Below are positions 16,590-48,697 of a stretch of 64,000 nt of DNA, one piece after another (position 1 is the first letter of the stretch; each line of letters opens with the position of its first letter). The notes beneath the pieces are model-generated. The model ran no database searches, was not told where the DNA came from, and was given only the letters and a program-made list of their open reading frames with translations. The stretch comes from an uncultured Gemmatimonadales bacterium (lineage in GTDB: Bacteria; Gemmatimonadota; Gemmatimonadetes; Gemmatimonadales; GWC2-71-9). The translations under genes and the position numbers were made by a program. The stretch covers positions 327,673 to 391,672 of the forward strand of contig CAWFPG010000004.1 of NCBI GenBank assembly GCA_963817715.1, written 5' to 3'.

Positions 16590-17536
16590 GCCTGCGGGAG
16601 CTGGTGCGCCGTCGGGCGGCGGGGCTGGCCGTGCGGCTGGTCTTCCCTGAGGGAGATGACCCGCGAATCATCGCCGCCGCCGGGACACTCCGGGAACTGG
16701 GGATTGCCGAGCCACGGCTCCTGGTCGCGGGCGAGCGTCCGGCCCCCGACGACCCGGCCCTTCAGGCCGCGGCCGATCTGCTCCGGGCCCGTCGTCCGGA
16801 GGCGGTGCGCGATGGACTGCATGCGCTCGATCTGGCTGCCGATCGGCTGCGCTTCGCGGCCGCGCTGGTGGCCCACGGTGAGGCCGATGGTTGTGTGGCC
16901 GGCGCCGTTGCGCCCACGGCCGAGGTGTTGCGAGCGGCGCTCTGGGCGATCGGCATGCGCGACGACCTCGGCACGGTGAGCGCGGCGATGTATCACGGCC
17001 TGCCCGATGGCCGCATCCTCACCTACACCGACGTGGCGGTGATTCCATCGCCCACCCCGGCTCAGCTCGCCGCCGCGGGGGCCGCAGCGGCCGACGATCG
17101 CCGCGCCCTGGTCGGCGACGAGCCGCGGGTGGCCTTCCTTTCGTTCAGCACCCACGGCAGCGCTGAGTGTGCCGAGACCGAGGCGGTGCGGGACGCCCTG
17201 GCACGGTTCCGGGTGCTCCGGCCCGCGGTGATCGCCGATGGCGAGTTGCAGGTCGATGCCGCGCTGGTGCCGGAGGTCGCCGCCCGCAAGTGTCCCGACT
17301 CGCCGGTCGCCGGCCGGGCCAATGTGCTGGTCTTTCCATCACTCGACGCGGCCAACATCGGCTACAAGCTCACCGAGCGGCTGGCCGGGGCCACGGCGGC
17401 CGGGCCGTTGCTGCAGGGACTGGCGCGACCGATGTCCGACCTGTCGCGCGGCGCGACACCCGATGATATTGTGGATGTGGCGGCGATGGTGGCCCTTCAG
17501 GCCGCGAATCGCCCGGGATCTCTCCAGGAGCGTTGA
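16586..17536 (+). CDS. phosphate acetyl/butyryl-transferase family protein
   Basis: 316 aa with an ATGA overlap with coaD. It shows a PTA_PTB-like sequence (FPEGDDPRII, DGELQVDAAL, ANVLVFPSLDAANIGYKL). Confidence 0.75.
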   Translation: MSLRELVRRRAAGLAVRLVFPEGDDPRIIAAAGTLRELGIAEPRLLVAGERPAPDDPALQAAADLLRARRPEAVRDGLHALDLAADRLRFAAALVAHGEADGCVAGAVAPTAEVLRAALWAIGMRDDLGTVSAAMYHGLPDGRILTYTDVAVIPSPTPAQLAAAGAAAADDRRALVGDEPRVAFLSFSTHGSAECAETEAVRDALARFRVLRPAVIADGELQVDAALVPEVAARKCPDSPVAGRANVLVFPSLDAANIGYKLTERLAGATAAGPLLQGLARPMSDLSRGATPDDIVDVAAMVALQAANRPGSLQER

Positions 17537-17877
17537 CAACGATGTCCATCACGACGACGCAATCGCCCGATGGGGTGACGATGGTGACGGTCGAGGGCCA
17601 GCTCATCGTGGCGAATCGGCAGGAACTCAAGCAGGTGATCGCCGACGCGGTCGAGGCCGGTGCCCGGAAGCTGGTGCTCGACTTTTCGGCCACCGCCTAC
17701 ATCGATTCCTCGGGCCTCGGTGCACTGGTCTCGATCAACAAGCGGGTGCGCGAGGCCGGCGGCGAGCTGCGCCTCGCGGGTCTCAACGAGGACCTGCGCT
17801 CGCTCTTCGAGCTGACCAAGCTGGACACCCTCTTCGCGATCGCGCCGACCGCGAACGAGGCTCTCGCGGGATTCTGA
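17533..17877 (+). CDS. STAS-domain anti-sigma-factor antagonist (SpoIIAA/RsbV-like)
   Basis: 114 aa; LDFSATAYIDSSGLGALV is typical of a STAS domain with a phosphorylatable Ser. Confidence 0.85.
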   Translation: MTTMSITTTQSPDGVTMVTVEGQLIVANRQELKQVIADAVEAGARKLVLDFSATAYIDSSGLGALVSINKRVREAGGELRLAGLNEDLRSLFELTKLDTLFAIAPTANEALAGF

Positions 17878-17885
17878 GACCGGCG

Positions 17886-18332
17886 ATGGGATTTGCCGCC
17901 CGGCGCATCCCGGCGCCGTCACTCGGTGCCGCCCGATTCGAGCTCGTGCTGCCCACCGACCTCGCCCTGGTCGGCGAGGCGGTCGAGGCCGTGGTCGACT
18001 GTTGTCGCGCGCAGGGCCCGCTCACCGGCCGGGCCCGGTTCCGACTCCGCACGGTCACCGCCGAGGCGATCGTCAACGCGATGACCTACGGGAATGCCAA
18101 CGACCCGGGTCGCCGGGTGCTGGTGGAGGTCGAGGTGCACCACGAACACATCGTGCTGGCGGTGGCCGATGAGGGCGACGGATTCGATCACGCCAGCGTG
18201 CGCGACCTCACCGAGGTCGAGTGCCACGAGGCCACCCGTGGTCGCGGGTTGTTCATGATCCGACGACTCGCCGAGCAGGTCGTCTTCAACGACCGAGGAA
18301 ACACCATCTGGATGACTCTGCCCCGACACTGA
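17886..18332 (+). CDS. anti-sigma regulatory factor / Ser-protein kinase (RsbW/SpoIIAB-like HATPase)
   Basis: Internal ATG at 17886. It carries EAIVNAMTYGN (N-box-like), VADEGDGF and GRGLFMIRRL motifs, directly after the STAS gene. Confidence 0.75.
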   Translation: MGFAARRIPAPSLGAARFELVLPTDLALVGEAVEAVVDCCRAQGPLTGRARFRLRTVTAEAIVNAMTYGNANDPGRRVLVEVEVHHEHIVLAVADEGDGFDHASVRDLTEVECHEATRGRGLFMIRRLAEQVVFNDRGNTIWMTLPRH

Positions 18333-18349
18333 GCACCCTGCGCGGCCTC

Positions 18350-19858
18350 GTGCCGCAGTTGGGTGCATTGGCGGGGGCGACGCTCAGGCTCTGGCGGCTC
18401 GATGGAGCCACCTGGCGGCTGCGCGCCGGCCCCGACGCCGCGGCGCCCCGGGCTCCTCGTGAGCCGGGGCAGTCGGCTGCGGCGTTTGTCGCCATTCCCG
18501 GCAGTGCCGAGCTCTACCTCGAGGTCGTCCCGCACGACGCGCGGTCCCCCGATGCCCTGGTGGCCCGGGTGCTGCCGATCGTGGCGGCCGTGCTGCACGC
18601 CGACCAGGGACAGCTGGCGCTCACCACCGAGCTGGCCGCGCGCTACGAGGAGATCGACCTGCTCTACTCGATCGGCCAATTGCTGGGGCGCTCCGAACCG
18701 GTCGAACAGGTGGCCACCCACATCCTCCGCGAGGTGAGCGCCGTGATCGGTGCCCGCCGCGCCGGCCTCCGGATTCTCGGCGACGACGGCATGCTGCAGC
18801 TCGTGGCCCTCGTCGGCGACGGCGACGACGAGATGATTCCCGACGCCGTCTCGGTCGATGCGCCGGACGACGTGGTGGTCGCGCGTGCGGTGCGCACCCG
18901 ACGGGTCCAGAGCGGGGTGCAACCCGATTGGGTCGAGGGCGAGGTGCTCGTGGTGCCGATGGTCTACGCCGCCAGCGGCCAGCCGGCACGGGTGGTGGGC
19001 ACCCTCGCCCTGGCCGACCGGGCGGGTGGTGGCCGGTTCACCCGGGAAGAGACCAAGCTGCTCGCCGCGGTCGGGACGCAGATCGGTGCCGCGATCGAGA
19101 ACGCCCGGCTCGCCGCGGCCGAGCGTGAGCAGCTCCGGGTTGCCCGCGAGCTGGAGCTCGCGCACGACCTCCAGCTCAAGCTGATGCCGACCTCTGTCGC
19201 ACTGCAGGGCGAGGCCGAGGTCGCGGTGTGGAGCCAGGCCGCCGAATCACTCGGCGGCGACTTCTACACCTTCGCCCGTCTCGGCCACGGCCGGATCGGG
19301 GTGATGCTCGGCGATGTCTCGTCGCACGGCTTCTCGGCGGCGCTCATCGCGGCGCAGGTGATGGCCGCCGCCGGCATCCATGTGAACATCGACACGTCGC
19401 CCGACGCCACACTCGCCCTGATTCGCACCTCGCTCGAGGACGAACTGGCCACCACGGAGATGTACCTCACCCTGGTCTATGCGATGTGCGATCCCGAGGC
19501 CGGCACGCTCAGCTATTCGAACGCCGGGCATCCGTATGCCTTCCGGGTGCCGCGCACCGGCGATCCGGTGCGGCTCGCGACCACCGCGCCACCGCTCGGC
19601 CTGGTGGAACACGGCGAGTTCGGGTGCGCCGTGATTCCGTGGCAGGCCGGCGAGGACCTGCTGGTGCTCTGCACCGATGGCCTCACCGACGGTGCCCGGG
19701 CCGACGGGGAGCGCTACGGCGGCGATCGGCTGCTGGCACGCCTTGCGGCGGGGCGCGAACTCGATCCGGCGGCGCTGGTGCAGTTCGTACGCGACGACCT
19801 CGACGCCTTCGGCGCTGAACGCACCGACGACTGCACCCTGCTCGTGATCCGGGTCTAG
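18350..19858 (+). CDS. GAF-domain PP2C/SpoIIE-family serine phosphatase (RsbU-like)
   Basis: A GAF-like middle region, then a SpoIIE/PP2C region (GGDFYTF...GDVSSHGFSAAL...CTDGLTD...DDCTLLVI). The start is uncertain (GTG at 18350). Confidence 0.8.
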   Translation: MPQLGALAGATLRLWRLDGATWRLRAGPDAAAPRAPREPGQSAAAFVAIPGSAELYLEVVPHDARSPDALVARVLPIVAAVLHADQGQLALTTELAARYEEIDLLYSIGQLLGRSEPVEQVATHILREVSAVIGARRAGLRILGDDGMLQLVALVGDGDDEMIPDAVSVDAPDDVVVARAVRTRRVQSGVQPDWVEGEVLVVPMVYAASGQPARVVGTLALADRAGGGRFTREETKLLAAVGTQIGAAIENARLAAAEREQLRVARELELAHDLQLKLMPTSVALQGEAEVAVWSQAAESLGGDFYTFARLGHGRIGVMLGDVSSHGFSAALIAAQVMAAAGIHVNIDTSPDATLALIRTSLEDELATTEMYLTLVYAMCDPEAGTLSYSNAGHPYAFRVPRTGDPVRLATTAPPLGLVEHGEFGCAVIPWQAGEDLLVLCTDGLTDGARADGERYGGDRLLARLAAGRELDPAALVQFVRDDLDAFGAERTDDCTLLVIRV

Positions 19859-22217: not shown

Positions 22218-23107
22218 GCAGGGCAACGACGCTCAAGGTCGGCGACCTGGTGGTGCACGCCATCGAGGCAGGCCACCAGCGGCTCGACGGCGGGGCGATG
22301 TTCGGGATCGTGCCCAAGCCGCTCTGGCAACGGCGGATCGAGCCCGACGAACGCAATCGCATCACCCTGGCGATGCGGCCGTTGTTGGTGGAGCACCCCG
22401 ACGGCCTGGTGCTGATCGACACCGGGCTCGGCAACAAGGAGGCGGCCAAGTTCCACGACATCTATGGCGTGGACAATGCCGGCGCCGACGGGCGCACGAT
22501 GCTCGAGGACGCCCTCGCCGAGCTGGGCCATGCACCGGGTGATGTGAAGATCGTGGTCGACACCCATCTGCACTTCGACCATGCCGGTGGCAACACCTTC
22601 ATCGCATCGGACGACGCCGAGCGGCGCGTGCAGGCGAGTTTCCCCAATGCGCGTTACGTGATGCACCGGCGCGAGTTCGAGTACGCCACCCACGCCAACG
22701 AGCGGACCCAGGGGAGCTACTTCGACCACAACTGGCGAGTGCTGGTCGAGGAGGACCGGGTCGACTTCCGCGACGGACCGGCGGCAGAGATCGTACCGGG
22801 GATCCGGACGATGGTCACCCCGGGGCACACCCCGTGGCACTGGAGCGTGCTGCTGGAGAGCGAGGGGGAGGCGCTCCTCTACCCAGCTGACACCGTCCCG
22901 ACGGCGGCCCACCTGCCGCTGCCATGGATCATGGGCTACGACGTGGAGCCGCTCCGCACCCTGGAGAGCAAGCGGGCGCTCTACACCCGCGGCGTCGCCG
23001 AGGGGTGGCGGGTGGTCTTCGAGCACGACGCCCGGGTGGTGGGCGGGCGGCTGGTGGAGGGCGAGAAGGGGATCGAGCTGGATGAGGTGGTGCGGGTGGG
23101 AGACTAG
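22214..23107 (+). CDS. MBL-fold metallo-hydrolase
   Basis: 297 aa with the THLHFDHAGG metal-binding motif. Confidence 0.8.
   Translation: MSRATTLKVGDLVVHAIEAGHQRLDGGAMFGIVPKPLWQRRIEPDERNRITLAMRPLLVEHPDGLVLIDTGLGNKEAAKFHDIYGVDNAGADGRTMLEDALAELGHAPGDVKIVVDTHLHFDHAGGNTFIASDDAERRVQASFPNARYVMHRREFEYATHANERTQGSYFDHNWRVLVEEDRVDFRDGPAAEIVPGIRTMVTPGHTPWHWSVLLESEGEALLYPADTVPTAAHLPLPWIMGYDVEPLRTLESKRALYTRGVAEGWRVVFEHDARVVGGRLVEGEKGIELDEVVRVGD
22997..23107 (+). repeat. direct repeat copy A (the in-frame 3' end of the MBL gene)
   Basis: These 111 nt recur at 24289-24399 with about 8 mismatches by hand alignment. Both copies end in ...gtgcgggtgggagactag. Confidence 0.85.
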
Positions 23108-23925
23108 CCGGATCCCGGCTCGAGCGTCACGTCTGCTGGACGCGGCACGACACCGCCCGGGGCGCCGAAGTGCGGCACGAGACCCTGGGCGGCCAGCGTT
23201 CGACCGGCATCGGGCATCACGAAGCACTGCTCCGTGCTGGACCAGTAGAGACACCCCGCTTCCGCGGCCGGGCGCTCGTTGGCAAACCGCTCGGCATCGT
23301 CCAGGGCGGCCAGCCAGGTCGACTTGGCGGCAGGGACGTCGAACGGCGTCGCCAGGTGCAGTCGACCGAACTCCTCCGGACGGTATCGCCCGCGACGCTT
23401 GAGCAGTTCGAGCAACGAAAGCGGAGTGAAGCCCGGGTCCTTGCCGACGGCGGCCCACACCAGGCCGGCGAGTGGCAGCACCTGCCGGTGTACGTACAGG
23501 ATGTCCACGAAGTCGCGGGGCTCGTCACGGCCCGCCAGGGCGAGCGCCTTGTTGATTGCCAGATCGACCGGGTCGAGCAGCAGTCCGCCGAGGGGATCAC
23601 GCACCAGCGGCATGAAGCGCCAGGCCGAGTCGTGGGCCCAGTCGATTCGAGTCGAGGCTGTGTCGCGACGGACCACTGCCCGGACGAATCCCGGGAGGCT
23701 CTGTTCGATCTCGACGACGAAGCCCGATGCTTCGAGCCTGCTCCGGTCCGTCGTGAATGTGCGGGCGACCCGCTCCTCGGAATCGTGAAAGAAATCGAGG
23801 TCGTCGCTGTAGCGCGAGCTGTGCGGCGCGAAATGCATCGCCGCTCCGCCGGCGAGATAGCGCTCGTCGGTGGGCGCGGCGGCGAGGGTCGCCAGCAACT
23901 CCTTCTGGAATCGGGTCAGCGGCAC
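23104..23925 (-). CDS. nucleotidyltransferase AbiEii/AbiGii-family toxin (type IV TA, DUF1814-like)
   Basis: 273 aa. SRYSDDLDFFH and DPVDLAINKALALAGR...PRDFVDI resemble AbiEii NTase motifs. Confidence 0.7.
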   Translation of the reverse strand: MPLTRFQKELLATLAAAPTDERYLAGGAAMHFAPHSSRYSDDLDFFHDSEERVARTFTTDRSRLEASGFVVEIEQSLPGFVRAVVRRDTASTRIDWAHDSAWRFMPLVRDPLGGLLLDPVDLAINKALALAGRDEPRDFVDILYVHRQVLPLAGLVWAAVGKDPGFTPLSLLELLKRRGRYRPEEFGRLHLATPFDVPAAKSTWLAALDDAERFANERPAAEAGCLYWSSTEQCFVMPDAGRTLAAQGLVPHFGAPGGVVPRPADVTLEPGSG

Positions 23926-24179
23926 AGCCGCTCCGCCAGCCGCCAGGCGGTCCGGTCGCCGTGCTTGCGAAGCTGCTCGGCGACCCAGGCCACGTCGTCG
24001 CGTCCGATCGCCAGGTCGGGGCGATACGACCAGAAGCAGGTCGCGTGGTAGCGGCGATAGGCACGCCGTGCCTCGCGGACCTTGACCATCCGGCGAGCCG
24101 TGTCGGGATCGAGCACGCGGCGGCTCTTGCGCCCGCCGCGGGCGCCGATCGTGGCGAGGTAGGTGCGGACATCGTTCAT
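23916..24179 (-). CDS. small basic protein (87 aa), putative cognate antitoxin or regulator of the AbiEii-like toxin
   Basis: It lies upstream of the toxin gene and overlaps it by 10 nt. The N-terminus is basic (GARGGRKSRR). It is not a canonical-length AbiEi. Confidence 0.5.
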   Translation of the reverse strand: MNDVRTYLATIGARGGRKSRRVLDPDTARRMVKVREARRAYRRYHATCFWSYRPDLAIGRDDVAWVAEQLRKHGDRTAWRLAERLCR

Positions 24180-24185
24180 GACATC

Positions 24186-24214
24186 AACGTATCCGGCTTA
24201 TGATGTAAAGTCAA
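24186..24214 (-). promoter_or_regulatory. candidate sigma-70-type promoter for the TA operon (possibly leaderless)
   Basis: The minus strand reads TTGACT-17 nt-TACGTT, and the -10 element ends 6 nt before the ATG at 24179. It lies in the only AT-rich patch nearby, next to an AATAGTAATAGT tandem hexamer. Confidence 0.3.
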
Positions 24215-24288
24215 TAGTAATAGTTGTTTAGCTTGGACATGCCGAGCTGCGCTGGCTGGAGGCCTGGGGAATCTCTCCTCTCGGCCTT

Positions 24289-24399
24289 GCCGAGGGATGG
24301 CGGGTGGTCTTCGAGCACGACGCCCGGGTGGTCGGCGGTCGGCTGGTGGAGGGCGAGAAGTGCGTCGCGCTGGACGAGGTGGTGCGGGTGGGAGACTAG
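24289..24399 (+). repeat. direct repeat copy B (displaced relic of the MBL gene's 3' end)
   Basis: It translates to AEGWRVVFEHDARVVGGRLVEGEKCVALDEVVRVGD*, against AEGWRVVFEHDARVVGGRLVEGEKGIELDEVVRVGD* for copy A. It has no upstream coding continuation. Confidence 0.85.
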
Positions 24400-24499
24400 G
24401 CTTCGTCAGTCCGACGATGGCTCAAGGTAGGACCCTGCCGATTTCGGGCGCGGTGCTTTGTAACAGTCCATCTCCGAATTGCTTGAAGTGAAGTTGCTA

Positions 24500-24510
24500 T
24501 CCCCCCCCCC
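24500..24510. repeat. homopolymeric C11 tract
   Basis: I counted 11 consecutive C, about 150 nt upstream of the lipoprotein gene start at 24660, in a lower-GC intergenic region. Confidence 0.9.
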
Positions 24511-24659
24511 CAGAATGAGTTGCGGGCCTACTAGGAATAACCCCAGGGGGTCCTGGGGCTTGCTCCCCAGTTCGCAATTCTGCACGTATGAATCGCGATC
24601 GTGCGGATACGCGGTCGTGACTCGTGAGGCGGTAGATCAGGTCTCGTGACTCGAGAGTC

Positions 24660-25802
24660 ATGATGCTCGGCTCGATGGATGTACCCCACAGCGTTGGGCT
24701 GCTTCTCCTCGTGGGGCTCGCGGGATGCGCCGCGCGTGGCGACGCGCCCGGGGACTCGAACATTTCCCCATCCAGCCCGGTGGTGATGCCGACTCTCGAG
24801 CGAGTCGCCTTCAAGCCCGACACGGGGAGTTCTCCATTCGGCAAGGTGCCGATCGCCGCAGATCCGAGCGGGGGCATCTACTACTACGGTCGCACCAACG
24901 GCACCCAATTGTTGACCCGGCTGGATTCGTCCGGAACGGCCATCGCCCGGTTTGGGAGCGCGGGCGCTGGCCCGGGCGAACTCTCTGGCGCCGGGGTGCT
25001 GTTGTCCAGCGGTGACACCCTGGCAGTCTACGATACGCGGAAAGCTGCCCTCGTCCTGTTCGGACCAGCCGGCGGAGTTCGTGGGGAGTTCAGGCTTGAA
25101 GCGCTCGGCTTCCCCTTGGCACTTGATGGTGACCGACTATTCACGAGTGATCTGGACGCGCCGCTGAGACACGAGCCTCCCGCCATTGTCGAGAGTCGTC
25201 TCGGCTCAGACTCCAGCTCGATCTTCCTGGGGGAAGGGGATCGGGCCTTCGTTGACGCAATTGTCCCCGATCCCTCGAGTTCCCCCAGTCATCTGCCTAT
25301 ACCGGTATTCACTGTTCGTGGAACACGGAGCGCGATCGGCAACCCACGCACGGGCAGGGTCACGGTCTGGGATGGGGCAGCGTCCTTTACGCTCCGACCT
25401 CCTGGCGAGGCGCCGAAGCGAGGTCCGCGTGGGCTTGAGGAAACGCGGGCGGCGCTCGAGGCGAGCCTGAACCAGTTGACCCCAGCAGGGCCGGCGAGGT
25501 CTCGCAGGAACACGGTGCTCCGCGAGCGTCTCGACACGCTGGCACGGGAGCAGCTTCCATGGTTCCTCTGGCCCGGGCTTCAGTTCGACGACCACGGACG
25601 ACTGTGGATCTTCAGCGACCGCGATGATTCTACCAGCGTGGATGTCTTCGCCGGCGAACGTCACCTCGGCCGATTGACACTGCCATGCTACCACCCTGAC
25701 AAGTGGGTTTCGCTCACTACCGGTTGGTTGGCGCTCCAGTGCAAAGGTGATCCCGAGGCCGATGTCCCCTATGAGCTGCAGCTATACCGCGTGGAGGGCT
25801 GA
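24660..25802 (+). CDS. hypothetical lipoprotein (possible beta-propeller)
   Basis: The signal peptide has the lipobox LLLVGLAGC. It is 380 aa with repetitive Gly/Asp-rich strand-like segments. No family recognised. Confidence 0.55.
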   Translation: MMLGSMDVPHSVGLLLLVGLAGCAARGDAPGDSNISPSSPVVMPTLERVAFKPDTGSSPFGKVPIAADPSGGIYYYGRTNGTQLLTRLDSSGTAIARFGSAGAGPGELSGAGVLLSSGDTLAVYDTRKAALVLFGPAGGVRGEFRLEALGFPLALDGDRLFTSDLDAPLRHEPPAIVESRLGSDSSSIFLGEGDRAFVDAIVPDPSSSPSHLPIPVFTVRGTRSAIGNPRTGRVTVWDGAASFTLRPPGEAPKRGPRGLEETRAALEASLNQLTPAGPARSRRNTVLRERLDTLAREQLPWFLWPGLQFDDHGRLWIFSDRDDSTSVDVFAGERHLGRLTLPCYHPDKWVSLTTGWLALQCKGDPEADVPYELQLYRVEG

Positions 25803-41191: not shown

Positions 41192-42733
41192 TCACCACAA
41201 CTTCTTGTATACCCTGAACCAGAGTCGCGTGGTCAATGCCACCGGTACCAGACCGGAGCCACTCGCCACCGTGCGCTCGATCGCGAGTCCGGCCTCGACC
41301 GGCATCCGGCGCTCGCCGTCGCGTCGGGTGCCGTCGTGGGCATAGCTCATCCCGAGGCCCACCCGCACCGCACTGGCGGCGGTGCCGTCGCCCATGGTCG
41401 CAACGTCGCCGCCGAACGGCGCGGCCTGGTCACCGGGGAGCGACCAGCGGTCCGTGCCGCGGTGAAACCACTGTACCGAGCCGGCGATGGCCAGGCGGTC
41501 GGCGAGTCGCCAGTAGGGCCGTGCCGTGAGGGTCAGCACGTCGCCGGGATTCCAGCGGAGTGATGCCAGCCGGGTGACCGGGAGGAGAAACTCGTCGCGG
41601 CGACCGATGCGCGCCTCCCGGGTGCCCGCCAACTGGCTCCGCCAATCGGCCGATGCGCGCACGCCGACCCGACCCCGACCGGTCTCGACGGTGCCTCGCA
41701 CGCGCAGGTCGAGCTGCCCATCGCCGGTGCCCGGATCGCGCAGGTGATCGGCACGGGGTGGTGTCCCGGTCGGCAGCACCGCGCTGCCGGTGAACCAGGC
41801 CCCGAACCAGCTGCGACGCTCCGCCGAGCTGCGCGACGCGAGGTGCCAGGTGACGCCCAGCTCGATGTCGCCGAGGCCGACCAGCGGCTGCTCGTCGAAG
41901 GTGGCCAGGTTGAACGCGTCGGAGGCAGTGAGCAGCGCGTCGAATTCGCTTTCGGTGATCGCCGCCGAGGGCAGTGCCAGCCCACCGGTCGGGGCAGCCA
42001 CGCCGAGCTCGTTGCCGAATCGGTCATGGTAGTCGGCTGCGGTCGCCAGTAGCGCGCTGCCGTCGGGTGAGTCGCCCAGTGGCAGCACCGGCGAGGCGCT
42101 GCTGGGGTTGACCAGCAGGGCGGCGACGGCGTCGTGAAACGCCGCGCCCTCCTGCACGGTCCTGGTGGCGAGCGCCAGGAGGTCGGGCGACTGATCGAAG
42201 TCGCCGGCGCTGATCCGGCCGGCGACGGCATCGAGCGACGCCTGGAACTGGTCGAGGTACGCACCACTCGACTGGTTGCCGAGCAGCGCCGGGTTGAGGC
42301 CAAGGGTGGCGTTGCTCACGTCGGGGGTGAGCTTCGCCTCGGTGCGCGCCGAGACGATCGGGAGCGAGGCGAAGATGGTGAGCCGGTCGGTCACCCCCAC
42401 GGCCAGGCCGATGGTGCCGACATTGCGCTGGCGCATCAACTGGGCGTCGAGAGCGCCCAGCGATCCACCGCTGGCCGGGGTACCCAGGATCGTCGTCAGG
42501 CGCTGCTCGAGGTCGGCCACCACTGGAGCCGCGGAGGCGGTGAGGGCCGCGGCGGCGACCGGATCGCCGAACGCACGCCGACTGCCGTCGGCGTACTCCT
42601 CCGACGCGGGACTGAAGCCACCGCCGAATGCAATGCGCAGGGTGCCCCGCGGGGCGGTGAGGTAGGGAAGCTGGCCCGCGAGCGGGGCGGTCGCCAGCAG
42701 CAGGCCGAGGGCGGGAAGGAGGCGGCGCATCAT
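41192..42733 (-). CDS. hypothetical outer-membrane beta-barrel protein
   Basis: Start at ATGATG (42733). It has the signal peptide MMRRLLPALGLLLATAPLAGQ, alternating strand-like segments and a C-terminal aromatic signature ...RLWFRVYKKLW. Confidence 0.55.
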   Translation of the reverse strand: MMRRLLPALGLLLATAPLAGQLPYLTAPRGTLRIAFGGGFSPASEEYADGSRRAFGDPVAAAALTASAAPVVADLEQRLTTILGTPASGGSLGALDAQLMRQRNVGTIGLAVGVTDRLTIFASLPIVSARTEAKLTPDVSNATLGLNPALLGNQSSGAYLDQFQASLDAVAGRISAGDFDQSPDLLALATRTVQEGAAFHDAVAALLVNPSSASPVLPLGDSPDGSALLATAADYHDRFGNELGVAAPTGGLALPSAAITESEFDALLTASDAFNLATFDEQPLVGLGDIELGVTWHLASRSSAERRSWFGAWFTGSAVLPTGTPPRADHLRDPGTGDGQLDLRVRGTVETGRGRVGVRASADWRSQLAGTREARIGRRDEFLLPVTRLASLRWNPGDVLTLTARPYWRLADRLAIAGSVQWFHRGTDRWSLPGDQAAPFGGDVATMGDGTAASAVRVGLGMSYAHDGTRRDGERRMPVEAGLAIERTVASGSGLVPVALTTRLWFRVYKKLW

Positions 42734-42770: not shown

Positions 42771-42786
42771 TGGCATGATATTGGCA
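42771..42786 (+). promoter_or_regulatory. sigma-54-type (-24/-12) promoter candidate upstream of the first pilin-like gene
   Basis: TGGCATG-ATAT-TGGCA compared with the consensus TGGCACG-N4-TTGCW. GG and GC are correctly spaced, with two mismatches. It lies 87 nt upstream of the ATG at 42873. Confidence 0.5.
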
Positions 42787-42872
42787 AGCTGCTGTGCCCC
42801 TTGGGCCAAGCGCCGCCGGGCCTCGCCGGCCAGGGGCCACCACGATCACCGGGCGATGCACGGGAGAACGCG

Positions 42873-43322
42873 ATGCCCCGTCGGAACGGATTCACCATCA
42901 TCGAGCTGCTTGTCGTCATCACGATCATCGGCATCCTCGCGTCGATCGCGTTGCCACGCTACGCCTATCTCAAACAGCGCGCCTACCTTGCCGCCGTGAA
43001 GAGTGATCTCCACAATCTGGTGACCGCCCAGGAAGCCTTCTACGCGAGCAACGACGACTACGCCGGCTCGATCGCGCCCGGCAACAGCGACGTCCCGGGG
43101 AAGCGCGGAGCCGGCGCGGTGGCCTTCCAGTTCAGCCCCGGTGTCCGACTCGTTCGGATGCGCTATCGATACAACCGTCGGCGGGGGCAGGGCTGGAACG
43201 CGGTGGTCCGGCACCTGCAGATCAAGGATCGATCGACGGATCGCTGCGGGATCTATATCGGGTCGGATCGGTACTCGCCGAATCGGGCGGTGACCTCGCC
43301 CGGAGCGGTCGCCTGCTGGTAG
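42873..43322 (+). CDS. type IV pilin-like protein (prepilin-type N-terminal cleavage/methylation domain), copy 1
   Basis: MPRRNG|FTIIELLVVITIIGILASIALPRY is a class III signal with Glu5. It has a C-terminal Cys pair (C...ACW). Confidence 0.8.
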   Translation: MPRRNGFTIIELLVVITIIGILASIALPRYAYLKQRAYLAAVKSDLHNLVTAQEAFYASNDDYAGSIAPGNSDVPGKRGAGAVAFQFSPGVRLVRMRYRYNRRRGQGWNAVVRHLQIKDRSTDRCGIYIGSDRYSPNRAVTSPGAVACW

Positions 43323-43323
43323 G

Positions 43324-43782
43324 TCAGCGGCGCAACACGTCGAGCGAGCGACCCAGGAACGAATCGGCATCCATCGCGCTCGAGAGTCGCAGCGTCTGCC
43401 CCTGAAGCTCCCCGGTCAGCACGTAGCCGGACCCGTCGGGTCGCCAGTCGACGCCCTCATCGACCGGGCCAGCCTCGGCGAGGGAGCCAGGCAGCCTCCC
43501 GTGCTCTTCGGTGAACCCCTCGACCCGTCCCCGCTCCAGATACAGGGTGAATCGCAGCGCGGCCTCGCGTCGATCAGCGCTCAACACGCTGTCGGTGGCC
43601 GGGCCGAAGATCCACCCCGGTCGCGCGATCCAGATGTAGCCCAGGAAGCCCCAGCCGAGTGCCAGCGCCAGGACAGCCCGCCTGTTGCGGGGGGGCGGGA
43701 CCGGCCGCACGGCGGGGTCCTCGGCAGGCAAGACCTCCCGGACCGCCTCGTAAAGCGCCTCGCGGCGCTGCTGTTCGTTCAT
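43324..43782 (-). CDS. single-TM protein of unknown family, pilin-partner paralogue 1
   Basis: Starts MNEQQRREALYEAVREV, then a TM helix (AVLALALGWGFLGYIWIA), LRFTLYLERGRVEGFTEEHGRLPGSLAEAG and a C-terminal DADSFLGRSLDVLRR. Its stop is 1 nt from the stop of pilin copy 1. Confidence 0.55.
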   Translation of the reverse strand: MNEQQRREALYEAVREVLPAEDPAVRPVPPPRNRRAVLALALGWGFLGYIWIARPGWIFGPATDSVLSADRREAALRFTLYLERGRVEGFTEEHGRLPGSLAEAGPVDEGVDWRPDGSGYVLTGELQGQTLRLSSAMDADSFLGRSLDVLRR

Positions 43783-43892
43783 GTCGCCTCCCGGGTCGTC
43801 GCCGCCGGTGGATCTACCGACTACCGGGGCCAACCTTGCAAGAGGCGGACCGCCAGCATCCTGGCCCAAATGTTGTCATATTGAGAACGCGG

Positions 43893-43975
43893 GCTCGGGT
43901 GGCGGAATGGCAGACGCAGGGGTCTTAAACACCCCGGGGGGCGACCCCGTGCGGGTTCGAGTCCCGCCCTGAGCA
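43893..43975 (+). tRNA. tRNA-Leu (anticodon UAA), class II with a long variable arm
   Basis: Hand-folded: acceptor GCTCGGG/CCTGAGC, D-arm GCGGAATGGCAGACGC, anticodon arm GGGGT-CTTAAAC-ACCCC, a 15-nt variable arm, T-arm GCGGG-TTCGAGT-CCCGC and discriminator A. CCA is not encoded. Confidence 0.92.
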
Positions 43976-44002
43976 TGCTTCCTGTCTCACTCCGGAGCGA
44001 CC

Positions 44003-44446
44003 ATGCGGGATCGGCGGGGCTTCACCCTCATTGAACTGCTGGCGGTGGTGACGATCATCGGCATCCTGGCGTCGATGGCGGTGCCGCGCTACGCCTATCT
44101 GAAGCAGCGGGCCTTCATCGCGTCGATGATCTCCGACCTGCACAACCTGATCTCGGCCGAGGAGGCTTTCTATTCGGTGAACGGCGACTACGCAGGCGGA
44201 ATCACTCCCGGCGCCGAGGTCCCCGGCACCGGGGGCGCGGGCCGGGCGACGCTGATTCCGAGTCCCGGCGTATCGATCACGGTCACTTGGCACTACAGTG
44301 ACTCGAACGGCGAGGGATGGAGCGCAGTGGCAACCCATCCCGGAGTGACCGACCCGAACCGTGATCAATGCGGAGTGTTCATGGGCAATGTGAGCTACTC
44401 GCCCAGCGCCTCGGTGACCCAGCCGGGTGTGATCACCTGTTACTGA
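44003..44446 (+). CDS. type IV pilin-like protein (prepilin-type N-terminal domain), copy 2
   Basis: MRDRRG|FTLIELLAVVTIIGILASMAVPRY. It is paralogous to copy 1 along its whole length and ends with a C-terminal Cys pair (...ITCY). Confidence 0.8.
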   Translation: MRDRRGFTLIELLAVVTIIGILASMAVPRYAYLKQRAFIASMISDLHNLISAEEAFYSVNGDYAGGITPGAEVPGTGGAGRATLIPSPGVSITVTWHYSDSNGEGWSAVATHPGVTDPNRDQCGVFMGNVSYSPSASVTQPGVITCY

Positions 44447-44458
44447 GCACCGCGCCAC

Positions 44459-44938
44459 TCATTCGCGCAGCACCGTCAGGGCGTTGCCGAGGAAGCTGTC
44501 GGCGTCGGCCCGGGAGGGCAGCTGGAGTTCGAGGCTGCCGTACCGTCCGCTCAGCACGTAGCCCTCGTCGGTGCGCTGCCAACTGACGCTGTCTTCGACC
44601 ATCCCGGCCTGGGCGAGTGAGGTGGGCAACCGGCCCCGGCGGGCGACGTACTCCTCGACGCGGCGCCGCTGCAGGTACATCGCGAAGCGGAGGGTCGCCT
44701 CCTGCTTCGCCGGCGAGAGTGTCACGGGTGCCGAGGGGCCGAAGAAGAACTCGGGGCGGGAGGACCAGAGCCACGCGATGACGAGCCAACCAAGCACGGT
44801 CACGAGCACCAACAACCGGATCCGTTCGCGCCGCTGGCCGTGGCGCGCCGTGCGCGCCTCGGCCGGGGTCGGCTCTCGCCCGGCAACCGCATCACGGACC
44901 GCCTCCTCGAGCTGCCGCCGTCGTTCCGCCTCGTTCAT
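44459..44938 (-). CDS. single-TM protein of unknown family, pilin-partner paralogue 2
   Basis: Starts MNEAERRRQLEEAVRDAV, then a TM helix, LRFAMYLQRRRVEEYVARRGRLPTSLAQAG and a C-terminal ADADSFLGNALTVLRE. ATG at 44938. Confidence 0.55.
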   Translation of the reverse strand: MNEAERRRQLEEAVRDAVAGREPTPAEARTARHGQRRERIRLLVLVTVLGWLVIAWLWSSRPEFFFGPSAPVTLSPAKQEATLRFAMYLQRRRVEEYVARRGRLPTSLAQAGMVEDSVSWQRTDEGYVLSGRYGSLELQLPSRADADSFLGNALTVLRE

Positions 44939-44992
44939 CGCTCCCTCCCCGGGGATTGCGGTGCGGTCCCGTTCGTCCGAGACTCCGGTCCC

Positions 44993-45400
44993 ATGACCGA
45001 TCCCGCGCCGCGCATCATCTGGACCTTCCGGCTCAAACTGGCCACCGGCCTCGCGGTGTTCGTGCTGCTTGTCATGGTGATCCGGGCCCGCGCGGAGCGC
45101 ACCGGGATCGCCGCACGACGCGCTGCGTTGCGCGGAGCCCTGCAAGAGCTGGTCACGCTCCAGCAGGACCGCTATGCCTTCTCCGGGCGGTTTGCCACGA
45201 CCCTCGATTCACTCGCCGACTGGGTGCCTCCACCTGGCGTGGTGGTCAGGTTCACGGCCGATGACGACCAGGACTGGCGAGCCATCGCCACCGATCCTGA
45301 CCTTTCCGTACCACCGCGAACCTGCGGCGTCTACCTGGGGCGGCCCGAGAGCGCGCCGCATCGCGCGGTCGTGGAGGAAGGCGTCCCAGCCTGCTGGTAG
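44993..45400 (+). CDS. degenerate pilin-like protein, copy 3 (no G/FTxxE cleavage motif)
   Basis: 135 aa with one N-terminal hydrophobic helix (LATGLAVFVLLVMVI). The C-terminal part aligns with copies 1 and 2 (WRAIATDP...CGVYLG...GVPACW). Confidence 0.5.
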   Translation: MTDPAPRIIWTFRLKLATGLAVFVLLVMVIRARAERTGIAARRAALRGALQELVTLQQDRYAFSGRFATTLDSLADWVPPPGVVVRFTADDDQDWRAIATDPDLSVPPRTCGVYLGRPESAPHRAVVEEGVPACW

Positions 45401-45415
45401 CGTGCTGCGCGTCGG

Positions 45416-46183
45416 TCAGTCTCTCTTCCGCAATATCGTGAGGCTGTTGCCGAGGAAGGAATCGACGGCCATGCGATCGGTCAACCGCAAGGTGGTCTCA
45501 CCGATGGTCGCCGCGAGCGTGTAGCTCCGTTCGCCGGTCGCCTCCAGCCGGATCGCTTCGTCGCGCACCCCGGCCTCGCCAGGGAACGACGGCAGCCGCC
45601 CCGTGCGGGCAAGGAAGTCGTCGGTCCGGTGGCGTGCCAGCCAGAGGCCGTAGCGCATCGACGGTTCGGACATCGCGGCGGGAGTGGTGAACGGCGCCGC
45701 CTTCGGTGGGCGAAGGAACGCCGGTGGGCTGAGCAGCACGAGCACCACCAGCAACCACCCGATCGAGGCGGCGGCGAGCCACGGCGGATCGGGGATCGGG
45801 CGCGGCGGGATGGCCCGACGCTCGGTCTGGCGCCGTTCGGCCTGGCGACGTTCCTCGCGCTCGAGCACCGTCTGGTGCGCGTCGGCGAGGAGTTGGCCAA
45901 GCTCGGGATCACCCTCGGCTCCCCACATCGTTTCGCTCGGTGCCTGATCGAGCGGCTCGTCGGTGGTGGTGTCGCCCGGCATGATTGCCGTTCCCTCGGG
46001 GTCCGGCCCCAGCTCCGGTCCCTGCTCCAGTTCCGGTTCCGGCACGGCCTCGGCCATGGGCGCCGCCTTCGGCTCGGCCTTCGGCTTTGCCTTCGCCTTG
46101 GGCTTGGCCTTTGGCTTGGCCTTCGCCTTGGCGTTGGTGCGCCGCGTGGGGCGCTTCCGGTCCTCAGGCTTGTCGGGGGGCAT
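45416..46183 (-). CDS. single-TM protein, pilin-partner paralogue 3, with an N-terminal Lys/Ala/Pro-repeat extension
   Basis: The C-terminal half is paralogous to the other two (…FLARTGRLPSFPGEAG…MAVDSFLGNSLTILRKRD). The N-terminus carries AKAKAKPKAKPKAKAKPKAEPKA. The start is uncertain (46183 or 46057). Confidence 0.5.
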   Translation of the reverse strand: MPPDKPEDRKRPTRRTNAKAKAKPKAKPKAKAKPKAEPKAAPMAEAVPEPELEQGPELGPDPEGTAIMPGDTTTDEPLDQAPSETMWGAEGDPELGQLLADAHQTVLEREERRQAERRQTERRAIPPRPIPDPPWLAAASIGWLLVVLVLLSPPAFLRPPKAAPFTTPAAMSEPSMRYGLWLARHRTDDFLARTGRLPSFPGEAGVRDEAIRLEATGERSYTLAATIGETTLRLTDRMAVDSFLGNSLTILRKRD

Positions 46184-46550
46184 TGCCGGCGAGCGCGTCG
46201 GCGACCTGCTCGGGAAAGAGGCGAATGTCGATCGGCTTGGTGATGTAGCCATCGAAGCCGGCGTCGAGCGCCTTGTCCCGGTCGCCGGCCATTGCATGGG
46301 CTGTCAGGGCGACCACCGCGAGGTCGGCGAACGCCGAGGCGCGCAGTTCGGCCAGGAGGGCGAAGCCGTCCTTGCCCGGCATCTGGATGTCCATCAGCAC
46401 GAGGTCGGGACGCTGGCCCTCGATGGTGGCGAACAGCTCCTCGCCCCCGGGCAGCCCGGTCACGGCGTGCCCCTTCAGCTCGAGCAGGGTGCGGAACAGC
46501 TTCATGTTGTCGGGGCTGTCCTCGACGATCAGGATGTTCGCCACGGTCAC
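46164..46550 (-). CDS. stand-alone response regulator receiver protein (CheY-like)
   Basis: 128 aa with ILIVEDS, LVLMDIQMPG, ALTAHA and YITKP, a complete REC signature. The GTG start overlaps the upstream stop (GTGA). Confidence 0.85.
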   Translation of the reverse strand: MTVANILIVEDSPDNMKLFRTLLELKGHAVTGLPGGEELFATIEGQRPDLVLMDIQMPGKDGFALLAELRASAFADLAVVALTAHAMAGDRDKALDAGFDGYITKPIDIRLFPEQVADALAGNAPRQA

Positions 46551-48697
46551 TCCATCTGGTTGCGCTTGAGCACGGCCTTGACCCGAGCCACCAGTGAACG
46601 GGGTTGGACGGGCTTGGTGAGGAAGTCCTGGGCGCCGAGTTCGAGCGCCTCCAGCTCGGTGTCGTCGGTACGGGCGGTGAGCATGATCACCGGGATCTGG
46701 CTCAGGCTCACCCGAGCCCGCATCTCCTCGAGCACGCCGATGCCTGTGAGGTTCGGCATGTCCTGATCCAGGATCACGAGGTCGACCACCTTGGTGTCGA
46801 GGGCCTCAAGCGTTTCGAGTCCATCAGTTGCCTCGTGGATGGTGAACCCTTCGCGCTCCAGCACGGTGCGAAGCAACCGGCGCATCGCCGAGTCGTCGTC
46901 GGCGAGCAGGATCCCGGGCTCACCATCGCCGCCATCGCGCGCCTTGCCCTTGGCCGGCGGTGCCGGTGCGGTCGGGGCTGCGTCGGCGGGCAGCTGGAGT
47001 TGGGTCTCACCGAGCACCCGGTGGATCTCGTCGAAGGAGGTCATCCCGCGCCAGTAGCGGTCCAGGCCGCTCTCCCAGAGGGTGCGCATGCCGTACGGAC
47101 GCGAGGCCTCGATCAGCTCGCCAAGCGGGGCGCCGGCCTCGACCAACCGTGGCACTTTGCCCTCGATCGGGAACATCTCCATCACCGCAAGGCGCCCCTT
47201 GAAGCCGGTACCGCCGCAGTGCTTGCACCCGGGGGCCTGCCGTGGCTCGAACGGCCCCTCGTACCCTTCTGGTGGGCGCGCCTCCTCGGGCACCGCCTCG
47301 GGAGGCACCGGCTCGGCGCAGCGCTCGCAGAGACGTCGCACCAGGCGCTGGGCCATGATCCCCTTGATCACCGAGCCGATCTTGAACGAATCGACGCCCA
47401 TGTCGCGGAGGCGGGTGACCGCCGAGACGGCGTCGTTGGTGTGCAGCGTGGAGAAGACGAAGTGGCCGGTGAGGCCCGCCTGGATCGCGATCGTGGCGGT
47501 ATCGAGATCGCGGATCTCGCCGACCAGGACGATGTCGGGATCCTGACGCAGCACCGACCGCAGGGCGGTCGCGAAGGTGAAGCCCTGTGCCTCGTTGACC
47601 TGCATCTGGGAGATGCCGTCCACGTCGTACTCGACCGGGTCCTCGACCGTGACGATGTTGACCTTGCCGGTCTTGAGGTGATTGAGCACGGCATAGAGCG
47701 TCGTCGTCTTGCCGGAGCCGGTCGGCCCGGTGACGAGCAGCATCCCCTCGCGATGCCCCAGGATGCGCATCAGCACCTCTTCCTCCTCGGGCGGGAGGGC
47801 GAGGTCGGGGATCGAGGTCTTGAGGTTGCTCTTGTTCAGGATCCGGATGACCAGCTTCTCGCCACGCCGTGCCACCGGCGCGGTGGCCACCCGGAGGTCG
47901 ACCACGGAACCATCCACGCGAGCCGTCGAGCGACCATCCTGCGGCGTCATCGAATTGGTCACGTCGAGCCCGGCAACGATCTTCACGCGCCGCACCAGCG
48001 ACGGCCCGGCCGCCTCGGGCAGCCGCATCACCTCGCGGAGGATGCCGTCGACGCGATACCGGACGATGATCTCGTGGGACTCGAGTTCCGAGTGGATGTC
48101 GCTGGCCCCGGCCCGCACCGAGTCGGTGATCAGGGCGTCCACCAGCTTGGCCATCGGGGCGTCGAAGGCCGGGTCGCGATCCTGGCCCTCCGGTCCCTTC
48201 CCCTCGATGTCGAGTGCCGGGGCAGGGGCCAGCCCGAGCAGCAGGCGGTTGATCTTGTTCTCTGGCCGGTAGAATTCGTCGAGCTTCTCCGCGATCTCGA
48301 CCGGCGATCCCATCGCGTACTTGACCTGCCGCCCGGCCACGAACTCGAGTTCCTGCTCCGCGGTGAGGTCGCGAGGGTCGCTGGTCGCCACCGTGAGCGA
48401 GCGTTCGTCGAGGGCGATCGGCACCACCTGGTGCTTGCGGGCGATCGACTCCGGCACCATGCCGGCCGCATGCTTGTCGGCCGTGGCGACCGTCGCGATC
48501 GGAAGCCGGAACCGCTTGGCCAGCGCGGCCACCAGGTCGGCGTCGGTCACCAGCCCGGCGTCGACGACGGCCTGCCACAGGGTCGGCGATCCGCCGCCAG
48601 CGAGCATCGCGAGCCTGGTCTCATCGGCGAGCCCGAGTTCGATCAGGTACGCGCCGAGCCAGGCGTCGGGGAACGGAGTGGGACCGGGAGGCGTCAT
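46547..48697 (-). CDS. GspE/PilB-family type II/IV secretion ATPase with N-terminal T2SSE_N-like domain and C-terminal receiver (REC) domain
   Basis: ATG at 48697. It has Walker A (VTGPTGSGKTTT), GEIRDLDTA, STLHTN, a tetra-Cys motif (CERC...CKHCGGTG), and a C-terminal REC domain (LLADDD...LVILDQDMP...MLTA...LTKP). Confidence 0.85.
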   Translation of the reverse strand: MTPPGPTPFPDAWLGAYLIELGLADETRLAMLAGGGSPTLWQAVVDAGLVTDADLVAALAKRFRLPIATVATADKHAAGMVPESIARKHQVVPIALDERSLTVATSDPRDLTAEQELEFVAGRQVKYAMGSPVEIAEKLDEFYRPENKINRLLLGLAPAPALDIEGKGPEGQDRDPAFDAPMAKLVDALITDSVRAGASDIHSELESHEIIVRYRVDGILREVMRLPEAAGPSLVRRVKIVAGLDVTNSMTPQDGRSTARVDGSVVDLRVATAPVARRGEKLVIRILNKSNLKTSIPDLALPPEEEEVLMRILGHREGMLLVTGPTGSGKTTTLYAVLNHLKTGKVNIVTVEDPVEYDVDGISQMQVNEAQGFTFATALRSVLRQDPDIVLVGEIRDLDTATIAIQAGLTGHFVFSTLHTNDAVSAVTRLRDMGVDSFKIGSVIKGIMAQRLVRRLCERCAEPVPPEAVPEEARPPEGYEGPFEPRQAPGCKHCGGTGFKGRLAVMEMFPIEGKVPRLVEAGAPLGELIEASRPYGMRTLWESGLDRYWRGMTSFDEIHRVLGETQLQLPADAAPTAPAPPAKGKARDGGDGEPGILLADDDSAMRRLLRTVLEREGFTIHEATDGLETLEALDTKVVDLVILDQDMPNLTGIGVLEEMRARVSLSQIPVIMLTARTDDTELEALELGAQDFLTKPVQPRSLVARVKAVLKRNQME

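Follow-up and report, generated by a model that had tools for sequence, protein, structure and literature searches.

A predicted membrane-protein family encoded beside type IV pilin genes in a conserved cassette of Gemmatimonadota

Type IV filaments are among the best-catalogued bacterial nanomachines and, to our knowledge, the list of their core parts is regarded as essentially complete. Coupling of the ATPase to the pilin in the canonical machines is the role of PilN and PilO, or of GspM and GspL: PulM/GspM contacts the major pseudopilin, the N-terminus of PilN binds cytoplasmic PilM, and the bitopic TcpR and BfpC proteins are the ATPase anchors of type IVb pili. In Geobacter a small protein, PilA-C (Spc), is thought to bind and stabilise the pilin next to which it is encoded. 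The locus described here comes from the Gemmatimonadota, an abundant, poorly studied soil phylum, and lies in a stretch of 64,000 nucleotides (the window) of an uncultured Gemmatimonadales bacterium (GenBank assembly GCA_963817715.1, contig CAWFPG010000004.1, positions 327,673 to 391,672 of the forward strand). Three plus-strand genes for pilins or a pilin-like protein (pil1, pil2 and pil3) each converge there on a minus-strand gene (par1, par2 and par3) for a protein of no named family, referred to below as the partner. The best explanation of the sequence is that the region is a Gemmatimonadota version of the type IVa pilus (T4aP) pilB-pilA locus with a lineage-specific, unannotated component. 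What is conserved about it among relatives is not the convergent pair: it is the unit of CheY-like receiver, partner and pilin, usually placed after a PilB-type ATPase that carries a receiver domain of its own (PilB-REC).

Myxococcus and Geobacter pilB-pilA loci resemble the window in two respects: its ATPase is of the PilB type, with MshEN and T2SSE domains and CxxC...CxxC motifs, and its prepilins have a class III signal, a PilA-like N-terminal helix and a C-terminal disulfide pair. The differences are equally plain. The window ATPase bears a C-terminal receiver and falls below the equivalog cut-offs, the genes next in line encode a CheY-like receiver and the unannotated partner, and no pilC, pilD, pilT or pilMNOPQ gene lies nearby, either in the window or in 20 kb of L001, the locus that shares its layout.

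The comparison of loci carries the main finding. It covers 27 distinct loci: the window, L001, L003, L005, L006, L008-L011 and 18 metagenomic loci. The last of these come from a degenerate DNA pattern for two partner motifs, which retrieved 19 metagenomic loci that were then checked by hmmsearch and phmmer; 18 encode the partner, and a pilin gene is adjacent to it in all 18 (17 co-directional, 1 convergent). Over the whole set the partner gene is directly beside a pilin gene in 27/27 loci, at partner identities down to about 25-30 %, and in 23 of the 27 the partner precedes the pilin on the same strand. The conserved cassette reads MshEN-T2SSE-REC, CheY-like receiver, partner, N_methyl pilin. 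Its CheY-like receiver gene stands directly upstream of the partner gene in every locus reaching that far (11/11 of the metagenomic loci that extend upstream), and PilB-REC is present in most (it is visible in 6 of the metagenomic loci); four loci (L006, L010, L019, L023) have the cassette without the ATPase. Distant members of the partner family (~25-35 % identity) are encoded in co-directional operons. Gene calls exist for six co-directional loci, and five of these (L005, L008, L009, L010, L011) show a 4-nt overlap between the partner and pilin genes; L005 and L009 have a like overlap between the partner gene and the one before it, which is a receiver by annotation or homology.

Convergence, on the other hand, is confined to one sub-lineage. 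L001/L002, from an uncultured Gemmatimonadales metagenome-assembled genome with a par2 orthologue that is 65 % identical, has the three convergent pairs, the gene for tRNA-Leu, the 513-aa signal-peptide protein and recN as in the window; L003 and L022 have two convergent pairs only. The original prediction had proposed three tandem convergent pairs of a pilin and a single-span partner as a module. Its pairing turns out to be general, while its convergence and triplication do not extend beyond this sub-lineage, most relatives having a single co-directional, overlapping partner-pilin pair.

That the adjacency is conserved synteny with no functional link, the partner being an unrelated envelope protein, deserves a hearing: the housekeeping genes around the block (aroA, cmk, rpsA, recN) are highly syntenic and keep their order in any case, and aroA, then cmk and rpsA, flank the cassette wherever the contig reaches. 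This fixed position indicates that the cassette is a vertically inherited element rather than a mobile one. Yet mere synteny is hard to square with an adjacency that holds in every locus down to such low identities, with the 4-nt overlaps, with the co-duplication of partner and pilin on two occasions (their trees are congruent, see below), and with far-side neighbours that change (PPK2, amylases, TadE/G, an unknown signal-peptide protein) while the pair stays intact. We consider it very unlikely.

Long open reading frames (ORFs) are cheap at high G+C, and the coding status of the six ORFs was therefore tested explicitly. At the ~70 % G+C of the window, which holds 167 ORFs of at least 150 aa, the minus-strand frames might be suspected of being spurious antisense ORFs. 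The six are, however, mutually non-overlapping and fill 42.8-46.2 kb, so that no partner ORF lies opposite a pilin ORF. Their G+C content at third codon positions (GC3) is 0.81-0.89 and at second positions (GC2) ~0.5, as in the flanking genes for RecN and the ATPase; the ratio of nonsynonymous to synonymous substitution rates (dN/dS) against the L001 orthologues (65-86 % identical) is 0.09-0.35 for all six genes, indicative of purifying selection on each of them. An identical Logan contig, for which genes were called independently, yields the same six products (255/135/159/147/152/149 aa) with the same ends. For the partner ORFs alone, GC3 is 0.85-0.89 and dN/dS 0.29-0.35 (0.855 and 0.34 for par3, which the hidden Markov model of the partner family recognises at E = 1.9e-44). 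Together with a family of at least 1000 clusters and AlphaFold2 models that score 92-95 in predicted local distance difference (pLDDT), these values refute the spurious-frame explanation, to which only a vanishing probability can be given. The six-ORF observation is genuine: the positions originally assigned to the six genes are confirmed, as are the gaps of 1, 12 and 15 nt between the convergent stop codons of pairs 1, 2 and 3, and the minus-strand frames have the coding signal on which their reality had been made to depend.

The three partners were predicted to be paralogues of each other and to belong to no named type IV pilus or type II secretion family, and both statements hold. par1 and par2 are 45 % identical and par2 finds par3 by BLASTP at E = 1e-21. 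None of the three has a Pfam or NCBIfam match at E <= 1, fifty diverse family members have no common Pfam family at E <= 0.1, and sequence profile searches of the PDB with the partner gave no match at E <= 10 other than six of chance level (E > 1). A nine-sequence profile run against 1.84 billion cluster representatives (clusters at 50 % identity) nevertheless recovers a large family: at least 1000 representatives at E <= 1e-3, 434 at E <= 1e-10 and 48 at E <= 1e-30, nearly all of 150-220 aa and named only "hypothetical protein" in every source. The alignment begins with an N-terminal motif, L..A...V overall and K..L..A in a distant clade, and proceeds through an Arg-rich stretch, a hydrophobic segment and an RP(A)W.F.P turn to a helix EASLR.ALY...R...F....GRLP..L.EAG, β-strands and a DSFLG.S motif. 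The N-terminal motif, which would be cytoplasmic, is kept even where the cassette has no ATPase gene. par3 is distinguished by its ~100 N-terminal residues, where the cytoplasmic extension contains a Lys/Ala/Pro repeat (KAKAKPKAKPKAKAKPKAEPKAAP) as well as an acidic stretch rich in Pro and Glu; the repeat is absent from the par3 orthologues of L003 and L022 and is thus variable, probably a disordered tail.

AlphaFold2 models par2 at a pLDDT of 92.2 at full length, and its periplasmic domain alone at a pLDDT of 95.2 with a predicted template-modelling score of 0.84. The model comprises a helix (residues 3-19), a long helix (25-60) that holds the transmembrane segment, a linker, a helix of 26 residues (76-101), three β-strands and two short C-terminal helices; the order H(26 residues)-H-E-E-E-H-H departs from a ferredoxin-like (αββ)x2 fold. 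Model and positive-inside rule together describe a bitopic inner-membrane protein with its N-terminus, a short conserved amphipathic helix, in the cytoplasm and a periplasmic α/β domain of ~90 residues, of minimal pilin-like predicted topology. The partner has no prepilin cleavage motif, no Gly-1 and no Glu5, and its cytoplasmic extension is ~40 residues long, so that it must remain membrane-anchored; a proline-rich linker breaks its helix after the transmembrane segment.

One helix of the partners had been said to resemble the post-helix region of pilins. Foldseek goes some way with this: for both models (full-length and domain) the top match in the PDB, and the only whole-domain one, is 4D40, the head domain of a Shewanella type IV pilin, aligned over 87-88 columns, which is nearly the whole of both chains, with template-modelling scores of 0.51 by query (TMq, domain) and 0.52-0.55 by target (TMt) and a probability of 0.75-0.92, but with E values of 0.2-0.6 that make this weak match not significant. 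Neisseria PilE and PilV rank far lower. Comparison of the partner and pilin profiles by hhalign sets transmembrane segment on transmembrane segment and helix on α1C in register, at a probability of only 8.5 %, which is likewise not significant, and no partner sequence has an N_methyl or T2SSG match. The resemblance to pilins is therefore echoed by the predicted fold topology, while the profile comparison is negative and homology is not demonstrated.

Is the partner, then, PilN, PilO, GspM or GspL under an unfamiliar sequence? In outline the likeness is considerable: a protein of ~150-180 aa, predicted to be N-in and single-pass, with a short conserved cytoplasmic N-terminus and a periplasmic α/β domain, whose gene is placed between those for the ATPase and the pilin. 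In detail it fails. The Pfam and NCBIfam models of those families do not find the partner, the 50 best Foldseek matches of either model in the PDB include no PilN, PilO, GspM or GspL chain, the modelled fold (a helix, a three-stranded sheet and two short helices) is not the duplicated αββ ferredoxin-like one, and no pilM or gspL is present.

The Geobacter PilA-N/PilA-C arrangement is the other obvious comparison: there, too, a pilin gene adjoins a small partner gene, and the nearest solved relatives of the N-terminal helices of pil1 and pil2 are Geobacter PilA-N, to which they are most similar, and Myxococcus PilA. It lends itself to a reading of the partner as a non-cleaved structural pilin-like subunit, either a membrane-retained base or anchor for pilin polymerisation or one half of a PilA-N/PilA-C-like heterodimer, within a reduced filament system driven by PilB-REC. 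The 4D40 match speaks for such a subunit, as do the order of elements (transmembrane helix, amphipathic helix, G-x-x-P loop, β-sheet), which mirrors that of pilins in the register found by hhalign, the strict one-to-one pairing and co-duplication with the pilin, and the PilA-N-like pilin N-terminus. The proline-rich linker, the 40-residue cytoplasmic extension and the missing Gly-1 and Glu5 do not fit a pilin subunit, however, and neither does the 8.5 % of the profile comparison. Unlike the truncated pilin of ~60 aa in Geobacter, pil1 and pil2 are full-length (147-149 aa) with a globular domain of their own; unlike PilA-C, the partner has a cytoplasmic helix and a transmembrane anchor, and PilA-C, including the chains of 6VK9, is not among the six chance-level PDB matches. 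A structural subunit is accordingly improbable. Just as doubtful, or a shade more so, is the boldest proposal: that the partner represents a novel class of pilin-fold protein, non-cleavable and retained in the membrane, which would form, with the pilin, the receiver and the receiver-fused PilB, a self-contained, phosphorylation-gated filament or pseudopilus module that dispenses with a PilMNO alignment complex.

As for the pilins themselves, pil1 (MPRRNG|FTIIELL) and pil2 (MRDRRG|FTLIELL) have canonical class III signals and pass PF07963 (35.9 and 37.3 bits; cut-off 21.2) and TIGR02532 (34.1 and 35.6 bits; cut-off 16.3); on these grounds they are classed as type IV prepilins. They are 54 % identical to each other, pil2 is related to pil3 by BLASTP at E = 3e-12, and a C-terminal Cys pair is common to all three, as the original prediction had it for this set of paralogues, two with the signal and one without. 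The N-terminus of pil3 is hydrophobic (it reads ...PRIIWTFRLKLATGL) and is devoid of Gly-1, Phe+1 and Glu+5; pil3 has no class III signal and no Pfam or NCBIfam match, and only its C-terminal domain marks it as a pilin paralogue. L001, L003 and L022 keep this degenerate N-terminus, and its conservation in three other genomes would therefore make pil3 a maintained, non-cleavable pilin paralogue. Against L001, dN/dS is 0.14 for pil3 and 0.09 for pil2. The C-terminal domains of convergent-type and co-directional-type pilins do not align.

The ATPase has PF05157 MshEN (62.8 bits), PF00437 T2SSE (394.6 bits) and PF00072 REC (107 bits) domains, and its T2SSE core and N-terminal MshEN domain place it among the PilB/GspE secretion ATPases. 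It falls short of both equivalog cut-offs (487.4 bits against 675.65 for TIGR02538 PilB, 489.5 against 630.25 for TIGR02533 GspE) and is thus best entered, on its scores, as a member of the secretion-ATPase family assignable to neither equivalog. Its PDB homologues PilB, GspE and PilF are found at E = 1e-93 to 1e-113, PilB structures slightly ahead of GspE; the closest are Geobacter PilB (5ZFR, 5TSG) and Myxococcus PilB (3JC8). An AGGAAGG motif precedes position 48697, which is the most likely start and gives 716 aa. With its L001 orthologue the ATPase shares 88 % identity at a dN/dS of 0.12. On the minus strand the operon runs from the ATPase through the CheY-like receiver to par3, which ends it as originally described, with overlaps of 4 nt (ATPase/receiver) and 20 nt (receiver/par3). 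Both receivers, the single-domain one and the one fused to the ATPase, retain in translation the acidic pocket, the phospho-acceptor Asp, the Thr and the Lys.

Single-domain CheY-like receivers linked to PilB-type motors have precedents in PilG and PilH of the Pil-Chp system and in the cyanobacterial PatA-type proteins that bind PilB (reported, e.g., in PMC11181946 and bioRxiv 10.1101/2021.06.11.447907). Like these, the single-domain receiver of the window is encoded with a PilB-type ATPase, on which it presumably acts. Unlike them, one receiver is here covalently fused to PilB, the second overlaps or directly precedes the gene for a membrane protein, and the cassette contains no gene for a CheA kinase or a methyl-accepting chemotaxis protein. 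A specific account of this cassette, of PilB-receiver fusions or of Gemmatimonadota pili was not found in the literature.

Receiver, partner and pilin might, as the main rival reading has it, form a signalling device, the partner sensing the pool or the state of the pilin through its pilin-like domain and transmembrane helix and sequestering or releasing the CheY-like receiver in a feedback or surface-sensing circuit, much as PilS senses PilA or as PilG and PilH serve Pil-Chp. The invariant core of the cassette is indeed receiver-partner-pilin, with the ATPase missing from L006, L010, L019 and L023 and the cytoplasmic helix of the partner retained in loci that lack it; the 4-nt overlaps that join the receiver, partner and pilin genes imply similar and probably low expression of the three; and both receivers keep all their phospho-acceptor residues. 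Set against this is a cassette with neither a histidine kinase nor an output domain, and a window lineage in which the pilins are separate transcription units and have multiplied, which suits structural subunits better than a sensor ligand. A signalling device is, on balance, unlikely, if less so than a structural subunit.

What remains is the reading that we tentatively prefer, held at a little below even confidence: the partner would serve the adjacent pilin as a dedicated inner-membrane partner or adaptor. Through its transmembrane helix and periplasmic domain it would touch the prepilin or pilin embedded in the membrane and hold or present it; its cytoplasmic helix would dock the CheY-like receiver, the receiver-fused ATPase, or both; and phosphorylation would gate the use of the pilin, phospho-signalling being thereby linked to delivery to a pilus machine that is assumed to be encoded elsewhere. 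As an unrelated protein, the partner would then play the part of PilN/PilO or GspM/GspL. Several facts weigh against this adaptor. The pilin-fold match is, as noted, not significant in either Foldseek or hhalign. No PilC, PilD, PilQ or PilMNOP gene lies in the window, and a complete machine has to be assumed. The absence of the ATPase from the cassette in four loci means that the link to PilB is not obligatory. Finally, it would be unusual for a major pilin to be encoded directly behind low-abundance regulators, in a gene that overlaps theirs; the arrangement could instead indicate a sensory role or a minor pilin. The assumption of a T4aP machine in another part of the genome would at least be in keeping, indirectly, with the reported homologues of the T4aP tip protein PilY1 in Gemmatimonadota (PMC13190605).

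How the triplicated, convergent layout arose can be reconstructed. Neighbour-joining trees of the partners and of the pilins are congruent, including the split into types 3, 2 and 1, so that the pair duplicates as a unit. In both trees the convergent-type loci group together as a single clade, whose first branch is type 3 (par3/pil3). Types 1 (par1/pil1) and 2 are sisters, type 1 being young and restricted to the window and L001; par1 clusters with its L001 orthologue as sister to the par2 type and is absent from L003 and L022, whose two pairs are of types 3 and 2. In support of this, the pil1 and pil2 genes share a 202-nt direct repeat of 73 % identity at a spacing of 1130 nt. The trees point to two duplications of the pair, the first into types 3 and 2 and a later one of type 2 into type 1, and to a single origin of the convergent orientation by inversion or replacement of the pilin gene. 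Invertible, phase-variable pilin cassettes were considered and rejected: no inverted repeats flank the pilins, and their orientation is the same in four independent genomes.

A tRNA-Leu(UAA) gene that did not figure in the original prediction lies between pairs 1 and 2, 27 nt upstream of pil2 and on the same strand. It precedes the type-2 pilin by 26-28 nt in the window, in L001 (10965-11047) and in L003 (2678-2760), and in L022 (5394-5476) it is directly upstream of the pilin ORF. Since pil2 follows immediately on the tRNA gene in all four convergent-type genomes, the two may be co-transcribed, which, if true, would uncouple expression of the pilin from that of its partner; in the window lineage each pilin gene is now, to judge from the layout, a separate transcription unit. 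A bldA-like role of this tRNA finds no support, TTA codons occurring in none of the six genes and nowhere in the ~17,000 codons of the called window genes. The same tRNA-Leu precedes TadE-TadE-TadG in L006.

The packing of the six genes bears on their transcription. The divergent start codons of par2 and pil3 are 54 nt apart, a spacing kept in L001 (window 44938-44993; L001 9946-10001), and their promoters must consequently overlap or fall inside neighbouring coding regions. No terminator-like site was found at the convergent junctions, whose folds are no more stable than those of shuffled sequences (z -0.4 to -1.3), which leaves bidirectional terminators there devoid of evidence. Without a junction terminator, and with the par2 and pil3 starts so close together, the convergent transcripts are likely to overlap at their 3' ends, an expectation we infer from the layout only. 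Readthrough from the minus-strand operon may also produce RNA antisense to the pilins, perhaps as a single long transcript that spans all three pilin genes; with stops 1-15 nt apart and par2 and pil3 back to back, the packed layout could in addition let transcriptional interference act as a switch between expression of the partner and of the pilin. Rfam matched only the tRNA near the pilins, with no riboswitch or known small RNA, and a promoter consensus scan, the consensus being uninformative for this phylum, gave no match.

Table 1. Features of the pilin-partner region of the window (positions are those of the 64,000-nucleotide stretch)
Feature	Position	Strand	Description
pil1	42873-43322	+	type IV prepilin 1 (predicted), 149 aa
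par1	43324-43782	-	partner 1, 152 aa
tRNA-Leu(UAA)	43893-43975	+	ARAGORN; Rfam RF00005 52.8 bits
pil2	44003-44446	+	type IV prepilin 2 (predicted), 147 aa
par2	44459-44938	-	partner 2, 159 aa
pil3	44993-45400	+	pilin-like paralogue 3, 135 aa
par3	45416-46183	-	partner 3, 255 aa; last gene of minus-strand operon
CheY-like receiver, single domain, 128 aa	46164-46550	-	PF00072 95.5 bits
PilB/GspE-type ATPase with C-terminal REC, 716 aa	46547-48697	-	PF05157, PF00437, PF00072; first gene of operon
Signal-peptide protein, 513 aa, divergent from pil1	41192-42733	-	context only, outside conserved cassette

The rest of the neighbourhood contributes little to a pilus. Pfam scans of 40 further window ORFs found no T2SSF/PilC, secretin, peptidase A24 or PilMNOP domain, in agreement with what had been said of the window, and none is annotated in the syntenic 20 kb of L001. 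The genes that these scans and the L001 annotation do show are housekeeping ones (Rnf, S21, MutS2, RecJ, KsgA, Rex, IF3, PheST, RNase Y, FolD, XseA, IspA, Dxs, NAD kinase, RecN, AroA, Cmk, S1, carboxylases). The 513-aa protein divergent from pil1 has no Pfam or NCBIfam match and ends in ...RVYKKLW; it probably resides in the outer membrane and represents an undescribed family, with homologues beside recN in L001, L003, L006, L020 and L022, and is not adjacent in most co-directional loci. On the far side of the pilin in L005, L008, L009 and L010, a gene for the polyphosphate kinase PPK2 recurs as convergent downstream neighbour. In L006/L007 (11036-13211, minus strand) the receiver-partner-pilin unit, here free of PilB-REC, faces and converges on TadE-TadE-TadG (Tad/VWA) pseudopilin genes.

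Two other segments of the window may be recorded. A patch of lower G+C (23104-25802; 0.646 against ~0.70) contains an AbiEii-like toxin ORF on the minus strand (23104-23925) and a 380-aa ORF (24660-25802) whose codon signal is weak and which has no match in Pfam, and may be a small acquired island. At 17238-19858 on the plus strand an RsbW-like HATPase_c_2 kinase is followed by a GAF-SpoIIE phosphatase: a partner-switching module, unrelated to the pilin pairs.

The locus, then, does not encode a new kind of machine: with its recognisable pilins and PilB-type motor, it belongs among the type IV filament loci. New here are a large, unnamed, phylum-associated protein family tied to pilins and to phospho-signalling, and an unusual fusion of PilB with a receiver. 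The conserved receiver-partner-pilin cassette is the real discovery; the triplicated convergent geometry, the least general aspect of the region, is mainly an evolutionary curiosity, if one that predicts extensive antisense overlap. The partner family is a target for a new Pfam or NCBIfam model and for genetics in cultured Gemmatimonas strains. If the partner does link phospho-signalling to the handling of pilins, it would represent a new solution to the coupling of ATPase and pilin, in place of PilM/N/O or GspL/M, and would give two-component signalling a direct route by which to gate pilus extension in the Gemmatimonadota.

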